A stretch of 64,000 bases of DNA from the NCBI GenBank assembly GCA_027066435.1, contig JAMONX010000121.1:4120-68119 (forward strand), read 5' to 3'. The position numbers and the translations under genes are program-made. The number at the start of each line of letters is the position of its first letter. The first letter of the stretch is position 1. The DNA comes from Campylobacterales bacterium (lineage in GTDB: Bacteria; Campylobacterota; Campylobacteria; Campylobacterales; QNZT01). The notes under the pieces were generated by a model. The model was not told the DNA's origin, made no database searches, and worked only from the letters and a program-made list of their open reading frames with translations. Below, one piece after another: positions 19,932 to 50,227 of this stretch.

Positions 19932-20918
19932 ATGAAAGCATTGGCACTATTTAGTGGTGGACTTGACAGTATGCTTGCTATGAAGACGATTAGTGATATG
20001 GGGATAGAGGTAGTTGCACTTCATATGAATACAGGTTTTGGTGGTAGTAAAGATAAGAGTGATGTTATGAAAAGAAGAGCAAAAATAGCTGGAGCTGAAT
20101 TTGTTATTGTAGATGTAAGAGAAGAGTTTATTCAAAAGATTCTTTTTGATCCAAAACATGGATATGGGAAGTATTTTAATCCTTGTATAGATTGTCATGG
20201 TTATATGTTTAGGATAGCAAAAGCACTTATGCCAAAATATGAGGCACAATTTATCATAACAGGTGAGGTTTTAGGGCAAAGACCGATGAGCCAAAGAGCA
20301 GAAGCTATTGCTACAGTCACCCAGCTTGCTGAAGATGATGAAGGATTGATTCTTCGTCCTATGTGTGCAAAACATATGAAACCTACAAAGCCAGAGATAG
20401 AGGGTTGGGTTGATAGAGAAAAGCTTTATGATATAGAGGGAAGAAGTCGTGAAGTGCAACTTGGTTTGGCTAAAAAGTTTGGTTGGGAAGATTATCAAAG
20501 TCCTGGTGGTGGGTGTCTTTTGACAGAGGCCTATTTTAGTAAAAAGGTTGAAGAGTTTGTTGAGCATGATAGGCTTGAAGTGAGTGATATTGCTGTTTTA
20601 AAGCATGGAAGACATTTTAGATTGCCAGATGGTGCAAAACTTGTCATAGGCAGGGATAAAGAGGACAATGAAGCGATAGGAAAAGTCCAAAGTCCAAAGT
20701 ATTATTTTGGTGAAGCACAAGATATATCTGGTCCGTTGTCGCTTTTGTCTAAAACTGCTAGTGAAGATGATAAAAAATTAGCGGCTAAACTTATTTTGAC
20801 ATATACAAAACTTCCTAGCGATAAAGATGGTGAAGTAAAGTTGGGTGAAGAGCTTATAGTCGCATCTGCATTTGAAAATAAAGAGGCAACTAGAGAGTTT
20901 TTTGTTTCGGTTGATTAG
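19932..20918 (+). CDS. PP-loop ATP pyrophosphatase (ThiI/MnmA-like thiolation superfamily), exact function uncertain
   Basis: PP-loop ALFSGGLDSMLA. CIDCHGYMF and ITGEVLGQRPMSQ resemble the ThiI C-terminal domain. No THUMP domain. Confidence 0.6.
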   Translation: MKALALFSGGLDSMLAMKTISDMGIEVVALHMNTGFGGSKDKSDVMKRRAKIAGAEFVIVDVREEFIQKILFDPKHGYGKYFNPCIDCHGYMFRIAKALMPKYEAQFIITGEVLGQRPMSQRAEAIATVTQLAEDDEGLILRPMCAKHMKPTKPEIEGWVDREKLYDIEGRSREVQLGLAKKFGWEDYQSPGGGCLLTEAYFSKKVEEFVEHDRLEVSDIAVLKHGRHFRLPDGAKLVIGRDKEDNEAIGKVQSPKYYFGEAQDISGPLSLLSKTASEDDKKLAAKLILTYTKLPSDKDGEVKLGEELIVASAFENKEATREFFVSVD

Positions 20919-21454
20919 ATGTTTTCAAAAACATCTTTGATACTAATCTCTTCATCTAAGCAGTTAATTTTCATCAACTCTTCTATGTAGAAGCCTTTGA
21001 CATAATAATATTTTTCATTATTTAGTTCATATTTGTCAATGATTTTTAAAGTGGTATCTACTATAAAATACTCTTTTATTCCAAATCTTTCATAAAGCTC
21101 TTTTTTGACTCCTTTATCTTTATGTGCGGTAGAGTTTGATAACACTTCAAAAATTGCACAAGGTATTGGATTTTCACAAAAGAGCATTACATCTGGTTGT
21201 ACTACATTGATATTTCCAGCACGAGAGAGTTTTAGATCAAATGGAGCTACTCTTGGGATGCAGGTGCTATTTTTATCTTTTGCAATATTTTTTAAGATAA
21301 AAAATATATTGCCAACTGTATCTTGATGAGTTGCACTTGCACCTGCCATCATAAATATTTCTCCATTTATCAACTCTACCCGTTCGCTTGTGCTTTTGTC
21401 GATATCTAAGTAGTCTTGGTAGTTATAATTATCTAGTTTTAGTGCTTCATCCAT
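20915..21454 (-). CDS. Uma2 (DUF820) family PD-(D/E)xK endonuclease-like protein
   Basis: Uma2 pattern ELINGEIFMMAGASATHQ ... VQPDVMLFC ... FEVLSNST..KDKGVKKELYERFGIKEYFIVD. Confidence 0.7.
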   Translation of the reverse strand: MDEALKLDNYNYQDYLDIDKSTSERVELINGEIFMMAGASATHQDTVGNIFFILKNIAKDKNSTCIPRVAPFDLKLSRAGNINVVQPDVMLFCENPIPCAIFEVLSNSTAHKDKGVKKELYERFGIKEYFIVDTTLKIIDKYELNNEKYYYVKGFYIEELMKINCLDEEISIKDVFENI

Positions 21455-21542
21455 TGTTTATCTCCTGCTTCTTTCATTTTAGCATGTTTCTTGTTTAGTT
21501 TTTTTTTAATTTGACGATATATTTGTACTTAATAAAATAGAG

Positions 21543-23981
21543 GTGAGGATTTTGCATATAATTGTTGTTTTATTGCTGATTTTTTCTTCTGTTTGGTCTA
21601 TTGAAATTGATAGGGATTTACTTAAAGAGGAGATTAGGAATAGCCCTAAGAATGTTGCTTTAAAAATAGTATTGGCTCGTACTTATATCAGTCAAAGTGA
21701 TTTTGATGAAGTTAAAAAATTGCTTAGCGAAGTGTTAGGGATTGAAAAAGATAATCAAAATGCTTTGTCGTTGATAGAAGATATAAAAAAGATTAAATCA
21801 TTTACAAGTGATAAAAAAGATAAAAAGATATCAGATTCAAAAAAGTTAATTTTACATAGTGATAAGCTTTTTAAAAACAGGCAATATAAACAAATCCTTC
21901 AGATGCATAAGGTGCTTAAAAGAAATAGTATTTTATTTGATAGACGGATTGATTTAAATGCTATATGGAGTAGCATCTATACAAAAGATTACAGTAGGGC
22001 ATTTAAAATCATAAAAAAATCTTCACTCTCTAAAGAGGAAAAATATTACCTCAAAATAAAAACTCATCAAGCAAAAGGTGAATATCAACTATCTGAAAAT
22101 CTTTATAAAGAGGCTCTAAAAGATAGAGATAGTGAAAATCTTGTAGTTGGTTTGTATGAACTATATATTAAACAGCATAAGTATAAAGCAGCAAGAGAAC
22201 TTGTTAGTTCATATAAAAATGTAGCATTAGAAAAAATATCACCACTGCCTAAAGTTAAAGAAAATGTTAAACCAAAGAGTGAATTTGAGATCACAAAAGG
22301 GCAGTTTTTTAAACTAAAAGATGGTGGGCAAAAAGATAAAGCATTTGAATTACTCTCAAAATATGTTAAAAAAGATTCAAAAAATGAAGAAGCAGTATTA
22401 CTTTTAGCAAATCATCTATATTGGGATGGAAAGATAGAAGAGAGTTTTAGAGTATTAAAGCCATTCATAGGAAAAACTAACAATAAAGAGATAGTAGCTA
22501 GATACTCTGATATTCTTTTACAAAAAGCAGTAAAAGAGCATAAAGCAAAGAACTATGATAAAGCATTAAAACAATATATAGACCATTATAAAATAAACCA
22601 AGATGCAAAGACAGCTAAAGAGATAGCTGAGATATATTTTATGAAAGAGGAGTTTAAAGAGTCTCTATCATATTATAAAACTTATCTAAACTCAAATACA
22701 AAAGATTACAAGATTAGGTTTCGATATGCTGAGGCATTGCAGATGCAAAAGAGCTATTTGGAGGCTCAAAAGGAGTACAAAAAGGTACTTGGAGTAAATA
22801 GTGAGCTTTATACACTATCACTCTATCGATACTCAAATATGCTTATGTCTCAAAAAGATGAACGAAAATGGAATAAATCAAGAAGGGCATTGGAGTATCT
22901 TAAAAAAGAGTTACAAAAAGAGGAGAAAAGCAAAAATAGAGACTCACTTTTAAGATATACAGAAATTGCACTAAAAAAAGTAAGCAAACCTATGCCAAAA
23001 CCTGGAAAATTTAAAGATATTATGCTTTTACCTGGTCAGAAAAAAATTATAAAAAAGGGGACTATTTTTGAAGGTTCTAAGATGGAGGCTAGGGATATAA
23101 CTTCAGTCAAATCTATGTTTGGTCAGAGAGGAGTTGTAGAAAAAAGAGTTGCACAAAAAGATATAGAGTTTAATTTTCATATGTTAGAAGATAGTAGTAT
23201 TGATAACTTATCTCTTGGAATTCGTCTTAATAATATTGCAAAGTTTAAAGATGCACTGCTCTCTTTGGAGAGTAAAAAGTCAAGAGTTAAAACTGGTGAG
23301 TTAGAGCATACATTTGATAGTTTTTATACACATTTTGATATGCAGAATTTTTCTATTGGTGTTGGGATTGATAAATTTGAAAAGTTTGAAGATTTAAATA
23401 TAGAGCTTTTATATAACAGAGCATTTGTAGGGCATCAGATGACTTTTGGATTTTCTTATCAAAATGCAGCTTTTGTAAATTCTCTAGCTTACATGATAGA
23501 ACATAGGATAAATACGGTGCAATTTTCTCTCTATGATGCCATACTGCTTAGAAACTTAAAAGAGGCAGAGGTTAGTTTGGAGTTAAATATTTTTGATGAT
23601 GAAAATATAAATGTAAACAGTTGGTTAAATTATCCGATATATACAATGATGTATAGAGATTTTGAAAACTCTTTTTCATTGTCTGGGAGTTATCTTTTTA
23701 ATTCAAAAACAGACTTGGGTTATTTCCCAGCTAGGTTTTTTGATGGTAACTATATAAATATGAGACCTACTATTAACCTTGGAAAGATTGGTAAGATTGG
23801 TGGTTTTGGTGGTATGGGATACTCTATAAGAGAGAAAAATTTTTTATATAACTATGGGCTTTATGCCCAGTTTTTAGTATTTGGATTGTTTGATATAAAT
23901 ATAGATTGTCGTCACTATCAAAGTGGATACAGTCCTGATGGTGCAAATGAGTGTTATGCCAAAGCGGCTTATAAATGGTAG
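21543..23981 (+). CDS. TPR-repeat outer-membrane polysaccharide export scaffold/porin (PgaA/BcsC/PelB-like)
   Basis: Signal peptide. About 450 aa of TPR-like helical repeats. Beta-rich C-terminal ~290 aa ending ...AKAAYKW (aromatic terminus typical of OM barrels). First gene of the EPS operon. The start codon (GTG 21543 or TTG 21552) is uncertain. Confidence 0.6.
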   Translation: MRILHIIVVLLLIFSSVWSIEIDRDLLKEEIRNSPKNVALKIVLARTYISQSDFDEVKKLLSEVLGIEKDNQNALSLIEDIKKIKSFTSDKKDKKISDSKKLILHSDKLFKNRQYKQILQMHKVLKRNSILFDRRIDLNAIWSSIYTKDYSRAFKIIKKSSLSKEEKYYLKIKTHQAKGEYQLSENLYKEALKDRDSENLVVGLYELYIKQHKYKAARELVSSYKNVALEKISPLPKVKENVKPKSEFEITKGQFFKLKDGGQKDKAFELLSKYVKKDSKNEEAVLLLANHLYWDGKIEESFRVLKPFIGKTNNKEIVARYSDILLQKAVKEHKAKNYDKALKQYIDHYKINQDAKTAKEIAEIYFMKEEFKESLSYYKTYLNSNTKDYKIRFRYAEALQMQKSYLEAQKEYKKVLGVNSELYTLSLYRYSNMLMSQKDERKWNKSRRALEYLKKELQKEEKSKNRDSLLRYTEIALKKVSKPMPKPGKFKDIMLLPGQKKIIKKGTIFEGSKMEARDITSVKSMFGQRGVVEKRVAQKDIEFNFHMLEDSSIDNLSLGIRLNNIAKFKDALLSLESKKSRVKTGELEHTFDSFYTHFDMQNFSIGVGIDKFEKFEDLNIELLYNRAFVGHQMTFGFSYQNAAFVNSLAYMIEHRINTVQFSLYDAILLRNLKEAEVSLELNIFDDENINVNSWLNYPIYTMMYRDFENSFSLSGSYLFNSKTDLGYFPARFFDGNYINMRPTINLGKIGKIGGFGGMGYSIREKNFLYNYGLYAQFLVFGLFDINIDCRHYQSGYSPDGANECYAKAAYKW

Positions 23982-25270
23982 AGGATAAAATAGGAATGAA
24001 TGATAAAGTTATATCACTTAAATCGCAAGAGAATAGTACTCTTATAAAAGTGGCACTTGAACAAAACAAAGAGCAAAAGATGCTTTTTCTTTCGCATAAA
24101 GAGTCCTCTTTTGTTACTAATTCGTTTAAAGAGATAAATGACAACAACCAAAAGTTATCATACAGTTATCCCTATATAAGATTTATCTTTTTAAAAGATA
24201 GTTGGAGTATTCTAGATGCCTCTTATGGTAAAACTTTTTTCATAAATGAAGTACAAAAGATGATGAAAGAGGAAGATTTTGATACTCTCTATCTTCATAG
24301 AGGTGATACTTTCTTTGAAGGTAGCACAAAGAGAGATATCCAGAGAGTCATATCTGATATCATTGAAATCTCCAGGTATTACCATAAAAGAGTCATCTTT
24401 TCTTTCAATGAAAAAACTGCACTTGGAAAAATTATTGATGATGTTGTATCGGTTGAGGTAGATTTAGAGTTAGAGGCATTTAAAGATAGCGATGGAGTAT
24501 ATAAAAGTCGTATCATAAGATGTAAAAAAGAGCATACAAATATCGTACTTTTTTCAGATAAAAAAGAGGTGCTAGATTTTCACAAATATATATTTAAAAA
24601 AGATCCAAATATCAATTTTTTGTATATTGAGAAGCTAGATGTAAATAGTAAAACAGTTTTAGCTAATTCAGATATTATTATTTTTAACCTAGATAATATC
24701 GACCTTAAAGATCAGCTTTTACGATTTATTGATAAGCAGAGGTTAAAGACAAAGTTTCTATTTTTGAGTGATGAAAAAGTGATTCGAAAACGAGATAAGA
24801 TTCGTAAGCTTGAAAAGGGTATTTTTCAGGTTTATGAGAAATACTTTGACTTGCTTGAATATATTCATACTATTGAAAAAATTATAGGTAGAAATTTTTA
24901 CTCGGAAGTGTTAAAACAGGTAAATATAGTACCTACAAATAAATATTTTAAGCAGATAGAAGAGTTTGAAAATGTTGTTTATAATTTTAGAAATTATCAT
25001 ATCTATTTTAGTATTGTTGCCATTAAGTACGAAGATGAGAGTGCAGTAGATAAAGAGCTTGTAGAGAGTTGTATCAGGGAGTTAGATATGGTATATCATG
25101 ATGAGATAAATAAAAAATTACTTTTTTTACTTGTAGATATTTTTCCGTCAAATGGTTTCTCTTTGGTAAGTGAACGATTAAGAGAGCAAAAAGTCTCTAT
25201 TGTAAAAAAAGAAGCTTTTTGTGCTGATGAATTTATACACTTAATGGGAAAAAAGATAGAGTATGTTTAA
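23975..25270 (+). CDS. Cytoplasmic protein of unknown function; candidate regulatory subunit (receiver-like plus possibly degenerate GGDEF-like C-terminus)
   Basis: No TM segment or signal peptide. Overlaps both neighbours. The C-terminal segment FSIVAIKYED...CIRELDMVYHDEINKKLLFLLVD can be laid over the GGDEF core (RxxD present, GGDEF absent). This is a by-eye assignment only. Confidence 0.35.
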   Translation: MVEDKIGMNDKVISLKSQENSTLIKVALEQNKEQKMLFLSHKESSFVTNSFKEINDNNQKLSYSYPYIRFIFLKDSWSILDASYGKTFFINEVQKMMKEEDFDTLYLHRGDTFFEGSTKRDIQRVISDIIEISRYYHKRVIFSFNEKTALGKIIDDVVSVEVDLELEAFKDSDGVYKSRIIRCKKEHTNIVLFSDKKEVLDFHKYIFKKDPNINFLYIEKLDVNSKTVLANSDIIIFNLDNIDLKDQLLRFIDKQRLKTKFLFLSDEKVIRKRDKIRKLEKGIFQVYEKYFDLLEYIHTIEKIIGRNFYSEVLKQVNIVPTNKYFKQIEEFENVVYNFRNYHIYFSIVAIKYEDESAVDKELVESCIRELDMVYHDEINKKLLFLLVDIFPSNGFSLVSERLREQKVSIVKKEAFCADEFIHLMGKKIEYV

Positions 25271-26561
25271 GATACTGTTTTTAGTCATACTTCTTTTAGC
25301 TCTCTCATATTTAAGTCTCTATCAGTTGGAAAATCTTTATAGATATGAAGATTCTTTTGTTCAAGCTGGTGTGATTTTTATACTTATTTTTTCGTTGATT
25401 GTTATAGCTCGTTATTTTATTTTACTTCTTCTTTCAATGCTTAATCTTTTTAGACACGCAAGAGATAAGAGAGTTCCTTCTAAAGAACATAATATAATGG
25501 TATCTGTTATCGTTCCTTGCTATGATGAAGAGAAGGTAATCAAAGCATCTTTGGAGAGTTTAAAAAATCAAACATACACAAACTTTGAGATTATTGTTGT
25601 AGATGATGGAAGTAGTGATAACACTCATTTAGTTGCTAAAAATATGGAGTTTATTGATGGTAAAAGACGACTTATTGCATTGACTAAAAAAAATGGTGGT
25701 AAAGCAGAGGCATTAAACTTTGGAATAGAACAGGCAAAAGGTGAATTAATTCTTGCTGTAGATGCAGACTCTAAACTTTCACCAGATGCGATAGAGTTGA
25801 TGGTGGGTTATTTTGATGACCCAAAAGTTGGAGCAGTTGCAGGTTCGGTTTATGTTACCAATCAAAACACACTTTGGACAAAACTCCAAGCTTTAGAGTA
25901 TATTCAGGGGTTAAATTTAGTTAGAAATGGTCAGGCATATCTAAAGCTTGTAAATATTATTCCCGGACCCATTGGAATGTTTAGAAAATCAGCAATTATT
26001 GAAGCGGGTGGTTATCAGTATGACACCTATGCTGAGGATTGTGATTTGACTCTAAATCTTATCAATAATCATTACAAGATAGATTATGAGATAGATGCAG
26101 TCTCTTATACAGAGGCTCCTGAAGATTTGATGGATTTGTTAAAACAGCGATATAGATGGACTAGAGGGATTTTACAATCTATCTTAAAACATAAAGATAA
26201 ACTTTGGAAATTTCATAAGAATTTTGCGATGAGCATGGTTGTATGGTATATGTTATTTGAGGCTATTTTGTGGCCTGTTGCATCTATATTTGCCAATATC
26301 TTTATCATATTTTTAGCTATAAGTTCAGGGCAGAGTGAGATGCTCATCTACTGGTGGATTATATTTACCGTACTTGATGTTGCTGCTAGTTTATATTGTG
26401 TTAGTGTAACAAAAGAGCGGATGGGACTTGTTGTTTATGCCTTGTATTATAGGATGTTTTTTATCAATATTATAAATATAGCTAAAGTAATGGCATCTGT
26501 AGAAGAATTTTTTGGGATTAAAATGAACTGGGGTAAATTAGAGAGAAAAGGGAGGATATAA
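25263..26561 (+). CDS. Processive family 2 glycosyltransferase (PgaC/IcaA/NodC-like polysaccharide synthase)
   Basis: VIVPCYDEE, VDDGSSDNT, AVDADS and QRYRWTRG motifs. Two N-terminal and several C-terminal TM helices. Confidence 0.85.
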   Translation: MFKILFLVILLLALSYLSLYQLENLYRYEDSFVQAGVIFILIFSLIVIARYFILLLLSMLNLFRHARDKRVPSKEHNIMVSVIVPCYDEEKVIKASLESLKNQTYTNFEIIVVDDGSSDNTHLVAKNMEFIDGKRRLIALTKKNGGKAEALNFGIEQAKGELILAVDADSKLSPDAIELMVGYFDDPKVGAVAGSVYVTNQNTLWTKLQALEYIQGLNLVRNGQAYLKLVNIIPGPIGMFRKSAIIEAGGYQYDTYAEDCDLTLNLINNHYKIDYEIDAVSYTEAPEDLMDLLKQRYRWTRGILQSILKHKDKLWKFHKNFAMSMVVWYMLFEAILWPVASIFANIFIIFLAISSGQSEMLIYWWIIFTVLDVAASLYCVSVTKERMGLVVYALYYRMFFINIINIAKVMASVEEFFGIKMNWGKLERKGRI

Positions 26562-26755
26562 TGCCATTTGATATATTAAAAGTGCTTTCATATACTGTTG
26601 TAGTTATTACAGTATTAACTATGATTTTTGGAGTGTTGGCATATAATTTTTATAAAATTAGAGAGAGAAAAAGGGCAAAAAATAGTGCCTCTTTAGATGG
26701 TGCATTAGAACAAGTGAGAGATAAATATTTATATTTTCAAGAGAAGGAGTTATGA
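26561..26755 (+). CDS. 64-aa single-TM protein, positional analogue of PgaD/IcaD
   Basis: GGAGG Shine-Dalgarno 5 nt upstream. The ATG overlaps the GT2 stop codon, and its own stop overlaps the next start. One TM helix (YTVVVITVLTMIFGVLAYNFY) plus a basic tail. Confidence 0.6.
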   Translation: MPFDILKVLSYTVVVITVLTMIFGVLAYNFYKIRERKRAKNSASLDGALEQVRDKYLYFQEKEL

Positions 26756-28581
26756 TGATAGCAGTAAAGCAAAGAAAAAAAGATAACTATGGCTTAAAAA
26801 TGTTACTTTATATAATAGGGCTTTTTCTTATTATGGCTGCAATGTTTTATAAAATTGGACAAAATGAACCGTTAGCACCAAGCTTTGCAATGGCTCCTGT
26901 AACAGATAAGCCGATATATATTTTAAAATCATATGCAACTGCGGTAACTTATCAAAAAAATGGACTTCATCAAAGTCAATATAGCCAAAAGTTAGAAAAA
27001 TTTAATTCATATATCGCATCTATAGGGTATAAAACAGAGTATATCCAAGAGGATGGGGTTAAATCTCTTTCAATTGGAGATATACTTTTTATACCTGATG
27101 CTATAGCTTTGAGTTTAGATGCAAAAGAGCAAATTAAAATGTTTGTTAAAAGTGGTGGAAATATCTTTTTTAATTTTACAGCAGGTTTTAGTGATGCAAA
27201 AGGTAGATATTTAGGAGATGGTTTTGTAAATGAGATAACAGGATTAAAGATAAGTAAAGATAAAAAATTTATTAACTTCAAAGAGTCCATTTTTCTCACC
27301 CAAAGAGTTCTTTCACCGTTGAATAATACAAATAGTGGTATTTTACTAGATGCACCAACATATGATTTAATCCCAATTTATATCACACCTCAGAGTTTAA
27401 AACCAGATATATTTATGACAACTTATGATCAAATCAATCCGCCTCTTGCTAAAGATAAAAGTAGTGATTTTTTGCAAGAAGAGTCAGGGGCTTTTTGGCA
27501 TGGATATTATGGTGAAGGAAAGTGGTTTTATATAAATCTTCCTAGCTATATTTTTTATGACTCTTCGGAGCAACAAAATGATTATAAGCAGATAAGTCAT
27601 GCGATTATTAACTTTTTATCAACAGATGTAATAATCCAAAAATATCCTTATATCGATAGATCGAGTATAGTATTTGTTTCTGAAGATACTGAGTTTAAAT
27701 TTGAAAATTTTAAGAAGTTTAGTGATTTAGCAAGAAAATATGAAATACCTGTAACTGCATTTATAGTTTCAAGTTTGGCAGAGAAAAAAGAACATTATGA
27801 CATGATGCGTGAAATATCTAAAAATCCTTTTGTAGAGTTTGGCTCACACAGTCACAATCATAAAAAGATTGTAGATACCAATGAATCATATATCAAACAA
27901 GAGACAAGTAATACAAAAACTATACTAGACCATTTTGCGTCTAGTCCAATTATGGGATTTAGACCTCCTCGTGAAGAGTTAGATGCGACTATGAAGAGAA
28001 ACCTTAGTGAGAGTGGATTTAAGTATATATTGGGTAAAAGTCAAAATTATCTCTATCCAAGATATAGTGAGAGTGAAAATGAACTTTTGATAATTCCTAG
28101 ACATGGCACAGATGATTATAGTTATCTTATCAATTTAGATTGGGATCAAGATGAGATAGTTACTCAAATAAAAAAAGAGACAGAGTTTGTTACAGGACTA
28201 GATGGGATATTCTCACTAAGCATACATACCCATCTTTTTGCCTATAATAGCAATATAGATATAGTTGAGAAGTATTTTCAGTACTTAAAACGGAGCCCAA
28301 CACTAAAGCCGTTAAATGGTCGCTCTATTGCTCTAAGAGTAGCACAAAACAGAAATATCTATATAGATTATAGTAAAACGGGAGATACAATCGCTCTAAA
28401 TATTGAAAATAGAAGTAGCATTGGAGTTAATGATTTTCATCTAAAGCTATTTAAAAATCCAAACATAAAGATTAGTTCTATAAGTTCTAATCAAGCAAAA
28501 ATAAGTGAGGATTCTATCATAAATATAAAATATCTTGAACCAACAAGTAAAATAACACTTTTTATAGAGTTAGAAAATTGA
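26752..28581 (+). CDS. Membrane-anchored polysaccharide deacetylase (CE4/NodB domain) with an unassigned N-terminal periplasmic domain
   Basis: N-terminal TM anchor. CE4 motifs VFVSEDTE, GSHSHNH and FRPPREE in the C-terminal half. Residues ~50-290 match no motif I recognise. Confidence 0.75.
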   Translation: MMIAVKQRKKDNYGLKMLLYIIGLFLIMAAMFYKIGQNEPLAPSFAMAPVTDKPIYILKSYATAVTYQKNGLHQSQYSQKLEKFNSYIASIGYKTEYIQEDGVKSLSIGDILFIPDAIALSLDAKEQIKMFVKSGGNIFFNFTAGFSDAKGRYLGDGFVNEITGLKISKDKKFINFKESIFLTQRVLSPLNNTNSGILLDAPTYDLIPIYITPQSLKPDIFMTTYDQINPPLAKDKSSDFLQEESGAFWHGYYGEGKWFYINLPSYIFYDSSEQQNDYKQISHAIINFLSTDVIIQKYPYIDRSSIVFVSEDTEFKFENFKKFSDLARKYEIPVTAFIVSSLAEKKEHYDMMREISKNPFVEFGSHSHNHKKIVDTNESYIKQETSNTKTILDHFASSPIMGFRPPREELDATMKRNLSESGFKYILGKSQNYLYPRYSESENELLIIPRHGTDDYSYLINLDWDQDEIVTQIKKETEFVTGLDGIFSLSIHTHLFAYNSNIDIVEKYFQYLKRSPTLKPLNGRSIALRVAQNRNIYIDYSKTGDTIALNIENRSSIGVNDFHLKLFKNPNIKISSISSNQAKISEDSIINIKYLEPTSKITLFIELEN

Positions 28582-28582
28582 T

Positions 28583-29710
28583 ATGAAAGTTTTCTGGCTT
28601 GTTCTCTCTATCTTTATTATTCATCTAGATGCACAGAGTATCAAAATAGATAGAGATAAAGAGGTTCAAGATTATTATCAAAACTGGAAACAAAACTATC
28701 TTATAAAAGAGAAAAACAGTTTATATCGCATAGCAACTGATAAAAAAGATAAACAAAAAACAGTCTCTGAAGGGCAGGGATATGGGATGCTCATAACTGC
28801 CTTGATGACAAAAAATGACAAAGATTCACAAAAAGTATTTGATGGTTTGTGGAGATTTTCAAGAGATCATCAAAGCTCACTCTCCAAAAACTTAATGTCT
28901 TGGGAAGTTCCTGAAAAAAAAGGAGCAAACAGCAGTGCCTTTGATGGAGATGCAGATATCGCTTATGCTTTGATATTAGCTCACTATTTTTGGGGAAGCA
29001 AAGGAGAAATTGACTATAAAAAAGAGGCAAACAGAGTCTTAGATGCAATTTGGAAATATACGATAGGAGATAAAAGTCATCTCCCACTTTTGGGCGATTG
29101 GGTTCACAATAGTAGTGAAAAGTACAATCAATATACAGTCCGCACTTCAGACTTTATGACAGGACACTTTAAAGCTTTTTATAGATTTTCTGGTGATAAA
29201 AAGTGGCTAAAAGTAGTCAAAGCCACTCAAAAAGCTCTTCTTGATGTACAAGATAAAAAAACTGGACTAATTCCTGATTTTATCCGATATGACCATAAAA
29301 AAGGAGAATTTGTAGCTGAAAAAGAGGGCTTTTTAGAACATCATGACGGAGCATATTATTATAATGGGTGTCGAATTCCGTTTCGTCTTGGTGTTGATGT
29401 TTTGATAAACAAAGATGAAGTTTCAAAAAAGATAGTCCAAAAACTCTCACGATGGATAGAAAAAACTAGCCAAAATGACCCACTAAAGATAAAGAGTGGA
29501 TTTGAATTAGACGGTAAAGTTATCGGGGATTATTTCTCTATCGTATTTACTGCCCCTTTTGGAGTTTCAGCACTAGCAACTTCACAAAAAGATTTTGCAA
29601 CAAAAATATATGATGTTGTGAAAAATCGCCACGAAAACTATTATGAAGATAGTGTCGCACTACTTAGTTTGTTAGCGATGACTGGAAATTTTATAGATCC
29701 AACTAAATAG
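28583..29710 (+). CDS. Secreted glycoside hydrolase family 8 (endoglucanase/chitosanase-type)
   Basis: Signal peptide. GH8 signatures TVSEGQGYGMLI and SAFDGDADIAYALILA. Confidence 0.8.
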   Translation: MKVFWLVLSIFIIHLDAQSIKIDRDKEVQDYYQNWKQNYLIKEKNSLYRIATDKKDKQKTVSEGQGYGMLITALMTKNDKDSQKVFDGLWRFSRDHQSSLSKNLMSWEVPEKKGANSSAFDGDADIAYALILAHYFWGSKGEIDYKKEANRVLDAIWKYTIGDKSHLPLLGDWVHNSSEKYNQYTVRTSDFMTGHFKAFYRFSGDKKWLKVVKATQKALLDVQDKKTGLIPDFIRYDHKKGEFVAEKEGFLEHHDGAYYYNGCRIPFRLGVDVLINKDEVSKKIVQKLSRWIEKTSQNDPLKIKSGFELDGKVIGDYFSIVFTAPFGVSALATSQKDFATKIYDVVKNRHENYYEDSVALLSLLAMTGNFIDPTK

Positions 29711-29717
29711 AAAACTA

Positions 29718-30029
29718 CTAATCCTCTTTAAGTGATTGGTTCTCTAATCTTTGTTTTATCCATGAAGGATTTTTTCTACAATCCAAAACAGCATAAATGT
29801 AAATTATATTGCTTTTGATTTTATAATAGATTGAAAAAGGAAATCGTTTTGACAAAAGCCTATGATATGTTGAAATCTTTATATGAATACCAGCATAAAT
29901 ATGAAGAGATTCAATATCAGACATAATTGAGTCTAAAAAATAGTTTCCAAGTCCCTCTTTTTGGCTTTGATAAAAATAAATACCATGGGCAATGTCATCT
30001 TCTGCTTCATCTAAAATTTTAATTTGCAT
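29718..30029 (-). CDS. Type II toxin, ParE/RelE superfamily
   Basis: About 100 aa. ParE-like ends (ILDEAEDDI ... IYIYAVLDCRKNP). Overlaps the upstream antitoxin gene by 11 nt. Confidence 0.7.
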   Translation of the reverse strand: MQIKILDEAEDDIAHGIYFYQSQKEGLGNYFLDSIMSDIESLHIYAGIHIKISTYHRLLSKRFPFSIYYKIKSNIIYIYAVLDCRKNPSWIKQRLENQSLKED

Positions 30030-30276
30030 TTAGAATTTTTTGAAGCCTTTTTTTTACTAAAGAGAGATCACTAAAATTTGATTCTCCATTTTTTACTTTT
30101 AGCTCTCTTTCATTTAAGAGCTCAATATGCCATTTAGGTGAAATTTTGTTTTTATTGGCATTGTTAGATAACTCTTGCCATAACTCTTCCATTAACATAA
30201 ACTTTTCTTCAATTCCAATTTGATCTAATTTTAACGATGTTTGCATAATAGTTTTTCCATGTTTTACTTTGTTCAA
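30019..30276 (-). CDS. Putative addiction-module antitoxin
   Basis: 85 aa. The pattern EEKFMLMEELWQELS...W..ELL.ERELKVKNGES is typical of the 'addiction module component' antitoxin family. Immediately upstream of the toxin. Confidence 0.6.
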   Translation of the reverse strand: MNKVKHGKTIMQTSLKLDQIGIEEKFMLMEELWQELSNNANKNKISPKWHIELLNERELKVKNGESNFSDLSLVKKRLQKILNAN

Positions 30277-30314: not shown

Positions 30315-31301
30315 TCAAAAAAGCAAAATAGAAAGATTAAAATAACGCTCATATGCCCACAAGGATGCAATCATAGCAGTCAATGTTGAAAATCCATACA
30401 ATATAAAATACCTATAAAATCTAGTAGCTCTTGTCATAAACAGAAGAGGTACAACCACAACAATAATAGCAATTTGTCCAATCTCAACCCCAAGATTAAA
30501 TCCAAGTAGTGACCTTACTAATTCCGATGAATTTAGCATCATCTCGTTAAGGATATTTGCAAACCCAAAACCGTGAATGAGTCCAAATCCAAAAGCAAGT
30601 AACCAAATCTTTGTTTTTATCCATGCAAATATATTGTTAAGGGCTGTAAAAAGAACAGAGAGTGCGATAGTAATTTCGACAAATTGTGAATTTAGAGTGA
30701 TGATATTTAACACACTTAGTGCTAGTGTTATGGAGTGGGCGATACTAAAAGCTGTAGCAATTTTAAGAACATTTATCAGTGAAGTTTTAAGTGAGTTTTG
30801 TGGAAAAATTTCCCTCTTTTTATAGTATATTACAGAGGGTATAAGAAGCATAAGCAAAAACAAAATATGATCAAACCCAATCCAAATATGCCAAATTCCC
30901 TCAAATAAAAAGTTCATAAATGATTCAAATGCGGTAGCTTGTTGGAGCTTGATTGATATTTCATTTGTAAAAGATGAGAGAATCATAGGTTTTGAATTGT
31001 TCTGTTCATTTATAGAAAAAAATGCTTTTTGTCCTTTATCTACATCAAAAAAGAGGTTATAAAAAACCTTTGTCTCTTTTTTTGGAATTGGACAAGTTAA
31101 GTCGATATGAAGTTTGATGTATGATTGATGCACACGGCGATAAACTTCAAAATCTGTAAGTGAATTTTTGCACAATTTTTCATCAAAGGAAATTTTTAGA
31201 TGAGGTAGAACAAACTTTACAATCTCCTCTTTTTTAGCTCTTATCTCCTTCCATGAGATGATACCGTTCTCATTTGCATCTAGAGTTATAAATCTATCCA
31301 A
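30315..31301 (-). CDS. HupE/UreJ_2-type membrane protein with an N-terminal EF-hand-containing domain (probably extends upstream to ~31430)
   Basis: HupE/UreJ_2 motif GIWHIWIGFDHILFLLMLLIP plus about 6 TM helices. EF-hand loop DANENGIISWKE. The called TTG start lies downstream of an in-frame signal-peptide-like stretch. Confidence 0.7.
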   Translation of the reverse strand: MDRFITLDANENGIISWKEIRAKKEEIVKFVLPHLKISFDEKLCKNSLTDFEVYRRVHQSYIKLHIDLTCPIPKKETKVFYNLFFDVDKGQKAFFSINEQNNSKPMILSSFTNEISIKLQQATAFESFMNFLFEGIWHIWIGFDHILFLLMLLIPSVIYYKKREIFPQNSLKTSLINVLKIATAFSIAHSITLALSVLNIITLNSQFVEITIALSVLFTALNNIFAWIKTKIWLLAFGFGLIHGFGFANILNEMMLNSSELVRSLLGFNLGVEIGQIAIIVVVVPLLFMTRATRFYRYFILYGFSTLTAMIASLWAYERYFNLSILLF

Positions 31302-31499: not shown

Positions 31500-31575
31500 G
31501 GGGCCTTAGCTCAGCTGGGAGAGCGCTTCGCTGGCAGCGAAGAGGTCAGCGGTTCGATCCCGCTAGGCTCCACCA
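31500..31575 (+). tRNA. tRNA-Ala (anticodon GGC), CCA encoded
   Basis: Cloverleaf readable: acceptor GGGGCCT/AGGCTCC with G3:U70, D-arm GCTC/GAGC, anticodon stem CTTCG/CGAAG with loop CTGGCAG, T-arm AGCGG-TTCGATC-CCGCT, then ACCA. Confidence 0.95.
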
Positions 31576-49846: not shown

Positions 49847-50227
49847 TGGTGGAACAGAGGGGGATCGAACCCCTGTCCAAAAATAGGTTTCATAATGATA
49901 TCTACATGCTTAGCGGCGATGTGGGAAATTTTAGTAAAGTAAAAACCCATCGCCCACCAGCTAACTTTACCTAAGCCCTAATTCTCGACAACATGCTCGG
50001 GCGGACACGATGTTAAAGTTACTTTTGTTTTATATGAAGCTATGCCAACCCTAAGTAACCAAGAGCGACTGACATAACTGACCGGCTTTAAGCTCTTACG
50101 CCGCTAATGCGTGCGCAGGTCTATAATCTGTATTGTTTGCGTTTAAATTAACGAGATAGTTTTAAGTCTTTCAAAGACTACATGCAATCAAGACCAACCT
50201 ACTCCTGTCGAAAGCCAAGTCTGTCCC
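49847..50227 (-). ncRNA. ssrA: tmRNA (ssrA)
   Basis: 5' GGGACAGACUUGGCUUUCGACAGG pairs with 3' ...CUGUUCCACCA (G3:U70). T-arm GGGGUUCGAUCCCC. Tag reading frame GCA AAC AAU ACA GAU UAU AGA CCU GCG CAC GCA UUA GCG GCG UAA gives ANNTDYRPAHALAA (50096-50140). Confidence 0.9.

Follow-up and report, generated by a model that had tools for sequence, protein, structure and literature searches.

Only a handful of synthase-dependent exopolysaccharide (EPS) families have been characterised well; those surveyed are cellulose, poly-N-acetylglucosamine (PNAG), alginate and Pel (PMC7112194, PMC9384988). A six-gene locus that defines another conserved family of this kind, with its parts recombined unexpectedly, was analysed computationally in a 64,000-nucleotide stretch of DNA from a Campylobacterales bacterium (GTDB lineage Campylobacterota; Campylobacteria; Campylobacterales; QNZT01; GenBank assembly GCA_027066435.1, contig JAMONX010000121.1, positions 4,120 to 68,119 of the forward strand). 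This whole stretch is called the window below, and coordinates are given in its numbering unless a locus is named. The six genes (21543-29710) encode a secreted tetratricopeptide repeat (TPR) protein, a cytosolic protein with a BcsE-like predicted architecture, a glycosyltransferase family 2 (GT2) synthase, a 64-aa membrane peptide, a carbohydrate esterase family 4 (CE4) deacetylase and a glycoside hydrolase family 8 (GH8) enzyme. No published description of such an operon was found in literature searches.

In the E. coli BcsRQABZC-EFG system, BcsE is composed of a catalytically incompetent ATPase-like N-domain, a degenerate REC domain and a degenerate GGDEF domain, and binds an intercalated dimer of cyclic di-GMP (c-di-GMP) via the I-sites R306ATD (REC*) and R415TGD (GGDEF*) (PMC8892547, PMC11470070). 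BcsF, a 63-aa peptide with one transmembrane (TM) segment, adds a beta-strand from its cytosolic tail to the sheet of the BcsE N-domain (PMC11470070). The window locus resembles this system in a predicted three-domain NTPase*-REC*-GGDEF* protein with RxxD motifs on REC* and GGDEF* (PMC8892547), a single-pass peptide of ~63 aa with a predicted cytosolic tail (PMC11470070), a TPR plus outer-membrane exporter and a periplasmic GH8. It differs in that its GT2 is a 432-aa, PilZ-less protein of the hexosamine-synthase group and not BcsA, in having no BcsB, BcsQ, BcsR or BcsG, and in carrying a CE4 deacetylase; the BcsE-like protein is 90 aa shorter than E. coli BcsE and shares no sequence similarity with it.

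In Pga systems, c-di-GMP is sensed at the PgaC-PgaD interface. With PgaABCD and IcaADBC the window locus shares the size and layout of the GT2, the small membrane peptide that follows it and a periplasmic CE4 coupled to a hydrolase; the TPR/porin layout of PgaA is also alike (807 aa, against 812 aa in the window), with no profile match. Unlike PgaABCD, the window operon has its hydrolase as a separate GH8 and not as a GH153 domain, adds an alpha/beta N-domain, a beta-sandwich and a membrane anchor to the deacetylase, and includes a separate cytosolic sensor. PgaB couples deacetylation to hydrolysis of the deacetylated polymer (PMC5933820). The nearest GT2 relatives found were in GH18-CE4-GT2 fusions (~1100 aa), which likewise combine hydrolase, CE4 and GT2, but as one polypeptide, with GH18 rather than GH8 and with no porin, sensor or small-peptide genes annotated adjacent. 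Human NDST1 and Aspergillus Agd3 share with the window deacetylase a non-catalytic alpha/beta N-domain packed on a metal-dependent deacetylase barrel (PMC10864358); the likeness is one of fold and domain order only, the window enzyme having no sulfotransferase domain and the substrate and organism being different. For Bacillus subtilis ydaJKLMN, the parallel drawn in the preliminary description is one of published gene content only: that locus has EPS synthesis genes along with those for a c-di-GMP receptor and a putative glycosyl hydrolase (PMC13274460). It differs in that YdaK is membrane-bound, whereas the BcsE-like protein is soluble, and in having no porin. The ydaJKLMN polymer is still undefined, with lectin data suggesting alpha-galactose/N-acetylgalactosamine residues (PMC13274460). 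The Listeria hydrolase PssZ is a GH126 and not a GH8 (PMC7479077).

Judged from its sequences, the window system is a member of neither the Pga nor the Bcs family and is mosaic-like: its synthase type and CE4-plus-hydrolase processing correspond to Pga, and its GH8 family, its TPR part (similar to BcsC), its sensor (similar to BcsE) and possibly a peptide anchor similar to BcsF correspond to Bcs. The preliminary description, made from the window sequence without database searches, had placed the locus among the synthase-dependent EPS operons but outside the standard pga and bcs types; this holds, as defining features of both are lacking. The present analysis adds a putative BcsE-like dual-RxxD sensor, a chitosanase-type GH8 and a second gene layout. 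A BcsE-like dual-I-site sensor has so far been deemed a hallmark of E. coli-type cellulose systems of Beta- and Gammaproteobacteria; its predicted presence beside a hexosamine-type synthase in Campylobacterota and a few marine Gammaproteobacteria bears on the evolution of BcsE and on how PilZ-less synthases sense c-di-GMP.

Gene order and distribution

All six genes lie on the plus strand. They were assigned, in order, as a secreted TPR protein of 812 aa (21543-23981; open reading frame (ORF) list), a cytosolic BcsE-like protein of 431 aa (23975-25270; ORF list, predicted structure and fold search), a GT2 synthase of 432 aa (25263-26561; Pfam GT2 families), a single-pass membrane peptide of 64 aa (26561-26755; ORF list), a membrane-anchored CE4 deacetylase of 609 aa (26752-28581; Pfam CE4 and predicted structure) and a secreted, periplasmic GH8 hydrolase of 375 aa (28583-29710; Pfam GH8). 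The first four ORFs overlap their successors by 7, 8, 1 and 4 nt, in order, and a 1-nt gap precedes the sixth. The G+C content of the operon block is ~30%, compared with 30-36% in the remaining window. The same-strand arrangement with overlapping or abutting junctions, as first described, was confirmed by the ORF list; the TPR, GT2, CE4 and GH8 assignments were matched by both Pfam and NCBIfam, and the quoted motifs (DDGSSD, DAD, QRYRWTRG, HSHNH, FRPPREE, SEGQGYGM, DGDADIAYAL and the C-terminal AAYKW) were all found in the translations. This six-gene arrangement is far beyond chance, and the genes very probably constitute one conserved EPS secretion operon. From the layout they would be expected to be co-transcribed. 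Inside the region, promoter-like and terminator-like matches showed no excess over shuffled sequences. The highest-ranking promoter-like match, at 21511-21538, stops 5 nt short of the start codon of the 812-aa protein. No c-di-GMP riboswitch or other RNA element was found upstream of the operon at Rfam gathering thresholds.

Relatives with 44-55% identity to the 431-aa protein had the identical six-gene order on their contigs. The 431-aa family was very small, with 26 clusters in a set of 5.8 billion proteins and 85 representatives in one of 1.84 billion (complete members ~400-490 aa); the family of the 609-aa protein was wider (174 clusters). A genome scan with the 609-aa protein returned 48 loci in two phyla, mostly in metagenome-assembled genomes (MAGs) of Campylobacterota, and the ORFs of all loci were classified by phmmer. 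The Campylobacterota carriers were Campylobacterales, Sulfurospirillum, Nautiliaceae, Sulfuricurvum, Sulfurimonadaceae and Nitratifractor; the gammaproteobacterial carriers were Marinobacterium jannaschii DSM 6295, Pontibacterium sinense, Pontibacterium MAGs and one Methylococcales MAG. Sample and isolate names gave hydrothermal vent, sulfidic cave and marine biofilm as sources. Two layouts were distinguished: type A, that of the window (porin, sensor, GT2, peptide, CE4, GH8), and type B (sensor, ~1100-aa porin, GT2, peptide, CE4 and a ~330-aa secreted protein in the place of GH8).

In 33 of the 34 loci with enough sequence, a sensor gene preceded the GT2 gene on the same strand, at a distance of at most 5.2 kb; flanking genes varied from locus to locus. 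It follows that the five core genes have been inherited together in two phyla, which is strong evidence for a functional unit. The genes were thus co-conserved in the sense that the preliminary description had asked for, with the core present in 48 loci and the 431-aa family gene near the GT2 gene in nearly all that could be assessed. The sole exception was locus L026 (5698-11815 of that locus; 926-aa porin, GT2, peptide and CE4), in which no BcsE-like gene was present within 5.7 kb upstream. Loci L023 and L027 probably have the same minority layout as L026.

Predicted functions of the six proteins

The 431-aa protein (23975-25270) had no match in Pfam or NCBIfam. An AlphaFold2 (AF2) model was built on 24 homologues (predicted local distance difference test (pLDDT) 83.5) and contained three alpha/beta domains: an NTPase-like, degenerate domain without a P-loop motif (~11-185), a REC-like domain of five strands and five helices with Asn at the position of the phospho-acceptor Asp (~188-305) and a small, degenerate GGDEF-like domain (~310-431). 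The tripartite NTPase-like/REC*/GGDEF* architecture is thus present in the model, at the level of fold only. The top four Foldseek matches in the PDB were BcsE chains of the E. coli cellulose macrocomplex (9fp0_E, 9fnn_U, 9fo7_E and 9fnn_E; 475-485 aligned columns, E 2e-13 to 8e-12); PleD, DgcR and KaiC ranked below them.

Two RxxD motifs were located in this protein. RELD (R368-D371; 25076-25087, plus strand) is the candidate primary I-site: it stands five residues ahead of EINKK, the turn at the degenerate GGDEF position, and in the model directly precedes the first strand of the hairpin 372-376/381-387, which is the canonical I-site position. RKRD (R271-D274; 24785-24796, plus strand), in the REC-like domain, is the candidate second I-site. 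When 127 members of the family, drawn from type A and type B loci, were aligned, R271 was conserved in 125, D274 in 123, R368 in all 127 and D371 in 126, and the x positions were variable. A non-significant hhalign alignment to E. coli BcsE (probability 0.2%) placed R271xxD274 opposite R306ATD, and the positions of the two motifs agree with those of BcsE R415TGD and R306ATD (PMC8892547; hhalign register). From the model and these motifs we infer c-di-GMP binding, and the protein is regarded as a putative c-di-GMP sensor and activator; control of the system by c-di-GMP through it is judged probable. Of its earlier description as a cytoplasmic protein of unknown function the cytosolic location stands, and the BcsE-like fold and two conserved RxxD motifs now replace the second half. 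Membership of the BcsE sequence family was rejected on negative profile and hhalign searches, and no BcsE-length protein was present among the 85 family representatives. The protein is therefore called BcsE-like in architecture and probable mechanism only.

The gene of the 64-aa peptide (26561-26755) directly followed the GT2 gene in every locus that covered this position. The peptide had no match in Pfam or NCBIfam. It has an N-terminal TM segment, a basic juxtamembrane stretch and an aromatic C-terminal motif (consensus YLFFE), with F23, G24, Y28, Y31, K32, R34 and F59 conserved; by the positive-inside rule the basic stretch predicts a cytosolic C-terminus. PgaD has two TM segments. Two identifications by sequence were tried and rejected: BcsF, which the family hidden Markov model (HMM) scored at 2.0 bits and which 86 of 1000 segment-shuffled BcsF sequences equalled or exceeded, and PgaD, scored at 1.5 bits (137 aa, compared with 64 aa and one TM segment for the peptide). 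The peptide resembles BcsF in size and predicted topology only. It may be a partner of the synthase or of the sensor, either BcsF-like or, as its place after the synthase would also fit, PgaD/IcaD-like. The position after the synthase that led the preliminary description to liken it to PgaD/IcaD is borne out, whereas the link to PgaD/IcaD themselves is not, with no detectable similarity.

The GT2 (25263-26561) carries the D, DxD and QxxRW motifs (DDGSSD, DAD and QRYRW) of a membrane-embedded, processive enzyme and has no PilZ domain by Pfam; neither PilZ nor BcsB families matched any of the six proteins in Pfam or NCBIfam. The NCBIfam scores were 202 bits for PgaC_IcaA (TIGR03937; cut-off 422.3), 134 bits for NodC and 62 bits for CelA (cut-off 699). 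Identity to E. coli PgaC was 35% over 277 aa, in the GT domain only. A neighbour-joining (NJ) tree (402 columns, 200 bootstraps) was built with, among others, two PgaCs, an IcaA-like GT, NodC, HasA, BcsA and NfrB. The window GT2 family was monophyletic (bootstrap 90) and stood apart from the PgaC/IcaA-like clade (100; E. coli and Ralstonia PgaC and the IcaA-like GT) and from the NodC/HasA clade (100), with BcsA as outgroup. Assignment of the GT2 as a PgaC was rejected on its score and its separate clade; in line with the preliminary description, which had named firm clustering with canonical PgaC as grounds for giving up its proposal, no such clustering was seen. The sister group (bootstrap 98) was formed by the GT2 domains, at 33-34% identity, of uncharacterised ~1100-aa glycosyltransferases encoded on plasmids of Bacillus mycoides (L057, 4781-8131 of that locus) and Sphingomonas (L058, 4850-8152). 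The B. mycoides protein, the one of the two that was scanned with Pfam, is a GH18-CE4-GT2 fusion.

The 609-aa protein (26752-28581) was modelled with AF2 (pLDDT 88.5, predicted template modelling score (pTM) 0.86). It is laid out as a TM anchor (13-36), an alpha/beta N-domain (55-290), a CE4 barrel (294-535) and a beta-sandwich (536-609); the anchor has a basic N-terminus, and the body is therefore predicted to be periplasmic. Pfam matched CE4 at 318-425 and, weakly, GH42M. Foldseek matches of the model included the CE4 enzymes 3rxz, HP0310 (3qbu) and 1z7a, GH42 proteins and, over 562 columns, human NDST1. Because of the GH42M match in Pfam, the GH42 fold matches presumably concern non-catalytic domains. 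In NDST1 the deacetylase is flanked by a Rossmann-like N-domain without catalytic function; the fungal EPS deacetylase Agd3 has one too, and there it enlarges the substrate cleft (PMC10864358). E311 was conserved in at least 90% of 44 homologues, and D312, H366-S-x-x-H370, R404-P-P, D454-D455, W464, H492 and H494 were invariant. The metal triad (Asp, His, His) and the catalytic base and acid of the five CE4 motifs are present, with Glu standing for the usual first Asp of motif 1, and on these conserved residues the deacetylase looks catalytically active. No PgaB model was among its NCBIfam matches, and its C-terminus is a beta-sandwich of ~75 aa and not a GH153 domain. The CE4 half proposed at the outset was upheld, and the ~250-aa domain ahead of it, then unassigned, is now likened to GH42 domain B and to the non-catalytic N-domain of NDST1.

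The GH8 enzyme (28583-29710) scored 64.5 bits with the BcsZ model (PRK11097; cut-off 299). A profile of 14 family members, searched against PDB sequences, matched the solved GH8 chitosanases 7cju, 5xd0 and 1v5c over the full length (E ~1e-105, 355 bits, ~380 residues), CelA at E 1e-45 and BcsZ (3qxf) at E 6e-6. E63 (of SEGQGYGM), E252 and D255 were invariant; the segment aligning with E252/D255 presumably holds the catalytic base of the chitosanase ChoK. By these sequence comparisons the enzyme is classed as chitosanase-type and not BcsZ-type. A chitosanase-type enzyme needs deacetylated beta-1,4 hexosamine and therefore fits a predicted action downstream of CE4, which parallels the order of events in PgaB. 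The preliminary description had held that linkage cannot be inferred from sequence; the chitosanase-type GH8 narrows the likely linkage to beta-1,4.

The 812-aa protein (21543-23981) begins with a signal-like MRILHIIVVLLLIFSSVWS and matches TPR families in Pfam. Its family profile aligned with E. coli BcsC (hhalign 91%, E 1e-6, 543 columns) and matched neither PgaA (E. coli, Ralstonia) nor NfrA. The C-terminal region showed beta-type amphipathic periodicity in 82% of windows, compared with 39% in the TPR part, is 17% aromatic and 7% glycine, ends in an invariant W812 and is about the size of the PgaA barrel. These features suggest that the protein is likely a periplasmic scaffold plus outer-membrane porin. 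An outer-membrane export scaffold like PgaA, BcsC or PelB had been proposed for it; the TPR and the beta-rich C-terminus are as claimed, and the likeness is to be narrowed to BcsC in the TPR part, with no profile match to PgaA.

Proposed mechanism and rival readings

The six proteins are read, with moderate confidence, as a c-di-GMP-gated synthase-dependent EPS system that makes, partly deacetylates, trims and exports an N-acetylhexosamine (HexNAc) chain. The inner-membrane GT2 would polymerise UDP-HexNAc, most likely UDP-N-acetylglucosamine (UDP-GlcNAc), and translocate the chain. In the periplasm, the membrane-anchored CE4 would strip some of the N-acetyl groups, with its alpha/beta N-domain extending the substrate cleft, and GH8 would cleave beta-1,4 bonds at deacetylated positions, which could serve for trimming the chain or for keeping the periplasm clear of it. 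Passage of the polymer across the outer membrane would be guided by the TPR/beta-barrel protein. Output would be gated by c-di-GMP bound at the two RxxD sites of the 431-aa protein. This protein is probably held at the membrane beside the synthase, and the 64-aa peptide may be its anchor, through a cytosolic tail, in the way that BcsF retains BcsE. Barrel formation, the role of the peptide, sugar identity and linkage are all predictions in this scheme. A partly de-N-acetylated hexosamine polymer, as proposed in the preliminary description, stays the best prediction. Because a chitosanase-type GH8, an intact CE4 site and a GH18 fusion in the sister clade occur together, beta-1,4 GlcNAc/glucosamine (GlcN), a chitin/chitosan-like chain, would be the likeliest product, an assignment that is put forward tentatively.

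Several results weigh against parts of this account. On the side of the product, the best-scoring synthase model, PgaC/IcaA, is that of an enzyme for beta-1,6 PNAG; the GT2 tree is small and distance-based and shows no more than the lack of a firm grouping with PgaC; the structures 7cju, 5xd0 and 1v5c were deposited as 'chitosanase' and/or 'glucanase', so that a glucan substrate is possible; and type B loci are without GH8, which is thus not a core part. Nothing was found when the C-terminal ~290 residues of the 812-aa protein were compared with the C-termini of BcsC, PgaA (two species) and NfrA, and the BcsC signal of the whole protein must therefore come from its TPR part. On the side of control, Foldseek TM-scores for the BcsE matches were ~0.27, which reflects domain order and local fold and no rigid superposition, and would fit a free orientation of the domains in the model. 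PleD and KaiC match the fold as well. No sequence-level link between the 431-aa protein and BcsE was found by Pfam, NCBIfam, the profile search against PDB sequences or hhalign, none of the genes called in the inspected loci encodes BcsQ or BcsR, and no GGDEF gene lies within the window.

Part of this evidence would be accommodated by a divergent PNAG system of the pga/ica type, in which the GT2 makes beta-1,6-GlcNAc and CE4 and GH8 take the roles of the PgaB N-domain and of GH153, respectively. The rank of PgaC_IcaA among the NCBIfam models, the 35% identity to E. coli PgaC in the GT domain, the size and membrane layout of the synthase and the small membrane peptide after it, as with PgaD/IcaD, all agree with such a system, and a TPR porin with a CE4 follows pga logic. 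It is nevertheless considered unlikely, as the synthase scores under half the equivalog cut-off and falls in a clade separate from PgaC/IcaA-like sequences, GH8 is closest to chitosanases, PgaA gives no profile match, the peptide is unlike PgaD and no PgaB model was matched. To our knowledge, none of the GH8 activities (cellulase, xylanase, chitosanase and licheninase) acts on beta-1,6 linkages, which also counts against it. A Bcs derivative making a cellulose-like or mixed-linkage beta-glucan, with CE4 removing O-acetyl groups or only binding, would draw on the BcsE-like fold, the TPR similarity to BcsC, the membership of GH8 in the BcsZ family and the name 'glucanase' among those given by depositors. 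This reading is very improbable: the GT2 is without PilZ and scores 62 bits with CelA against 202 with PgaC_IcaA, BcsA is the outgroup in the tree and BcsB is absent, the BcsZ model is far below its cut-off, the catalytic and metal-binding residues of CE4 are conserved, and GH18, the fusion partner of the sister GT2s, is a family of chitinases.

The GT2 sequence does not reveal the sugar donor, and degenerate GGDEF and REC folds have several roles. Another HexNAc chain could accordingly be considered, either poly-N-acetylmannosamine, as for E. coli NfrB or Listeria Pss, or a heteropolymer, with the 431-aa protein as a scaffold or a sensor of another nucleotide; the window, with no diguanylate cyclase, would suit this. 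It is held to be improbable, since of the hexosamine synthases in the tree NfrB stood farthest off (18.8% identity), GGDEF-containing ORFs are present in related contigs, and it is difficult to see why two RxxD motifs at I-site positions should be conserved almost completely if no dinucleotide were bound.

Under the chitosan-like reading, CE4 and the chitosanase-type GH8 predict a secreted chitosan-like polymer, which would be an unusual bacterial matrix material if true. It could plausibly be the polymer, so far uncharacterised, that forms the sheaths in vent Sulfurovum mats. The sheaths meant are the heat-resistant, 'chitin- or cellulose-like' sheaths and matrix reported for filamentous vent Campylobacterota such as Sulfurovum, and their link to the operon is speculation. 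That the locus is a dedicated chitin/chitosan-like secretion system, that it is the genetic basis of vent sheaths and that the BcsE/BcsF c-di-GMP 'activation-by-proxy' module is an exchangeable cassette, here coupled to a PilZ-less synthase not of the cellulose type, are, taken together, a rather doubtful proposition. Type B loci occur in Nitratifractor, which belongs to the Sulfurovaceae, the family of Sulfurovum.

Second layout and neighbouring genes

Type B had two cultured carriers, M. jannaschii DSM 6295 and P. sinense. Its ~330-aa protein (320-350 aa) is exemplified by L006 (11905-12918 of that locus) and was also found in L031-L033, L036-L039, L041, L042, L045, L047, L048 and L050. The protein is secreted and has invariant NPEFNE-like and FQEMR motifs. 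It showed no similarity to the GH8 family, to PDB sequences or to Pfam; one member had a weak match to Spherulin4 (GH135-related) at E 0.047, which is a lead only. The protein may represent a new hydrolase family. The type B porin of M. jannaschii (L033, 5074-8499 of that locus; 1141 aa) has an extra NTF2-like domain, Cds6_C (Pfam E 1e-10), placed between the TPR region and the C-terminal domain.

Downstream of the window operon, a 328-aa, metal-transporter-like HupE_UreJ_2 membrane protein is encoded on the minus strand (30315-31301; Pfam PF13795, E 1e-45). Of 32 loci, 19 had a HupE-like gene no more than 3 kb from the cluster. Its three arrangements span two phyla: it is convergent and downstream in type A and in the Methylococcales locus, and upstream on the same strand in Pontibacterium. 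Such a neighbour was listed for L002-L006, L009, L012, L014-L020, L022, L025, L028, L029, L031, L035, L038, L041, L045, L047, L052 and L053, and the family HMM detected no further divergent ones. The protein has an HxxxGxDH-type motif and an EF-hand-like DANENGIISWKE loop. The window ORF is without the signal peptide of its homologues; a signal-like sequence lies in frame upstream with no ATG, GTG or TTG start. The recurrence suggests a functional link of the HupE-like gene to the operon, perhaps a role in metal supply to CE4, and its membership of the operon is uncertain.

An addiction-module pair, an 85-aa Unstab_antitox antitoxin and a 103-aa partner, lies between the GH8 and HupE-like genes (29718-30276, minus strand). 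Because the GH8 and HupE-like genes abut or overlap in relatives such as L003 and L009, the pair looks like a recent insertion. On the other side of the operon, between it and a ThiI-like gene, a gene for a Uma2-family putative restriction endonuclease was found (20915-21454, minus strand). It is absent from the corresponding position in L003 and L004, and other small genes are found there in L002; this is therefore a variable insertion spot just upstream of the operon. No Rfam families were found near the operon. A tRNA gene (31500-31572, plus strand) separates the HupE-like gene from a gene for a TonB-dependent receptor, and a tmRNA gene (120 bits; 49847-50227, minus strand) lies further downstream.

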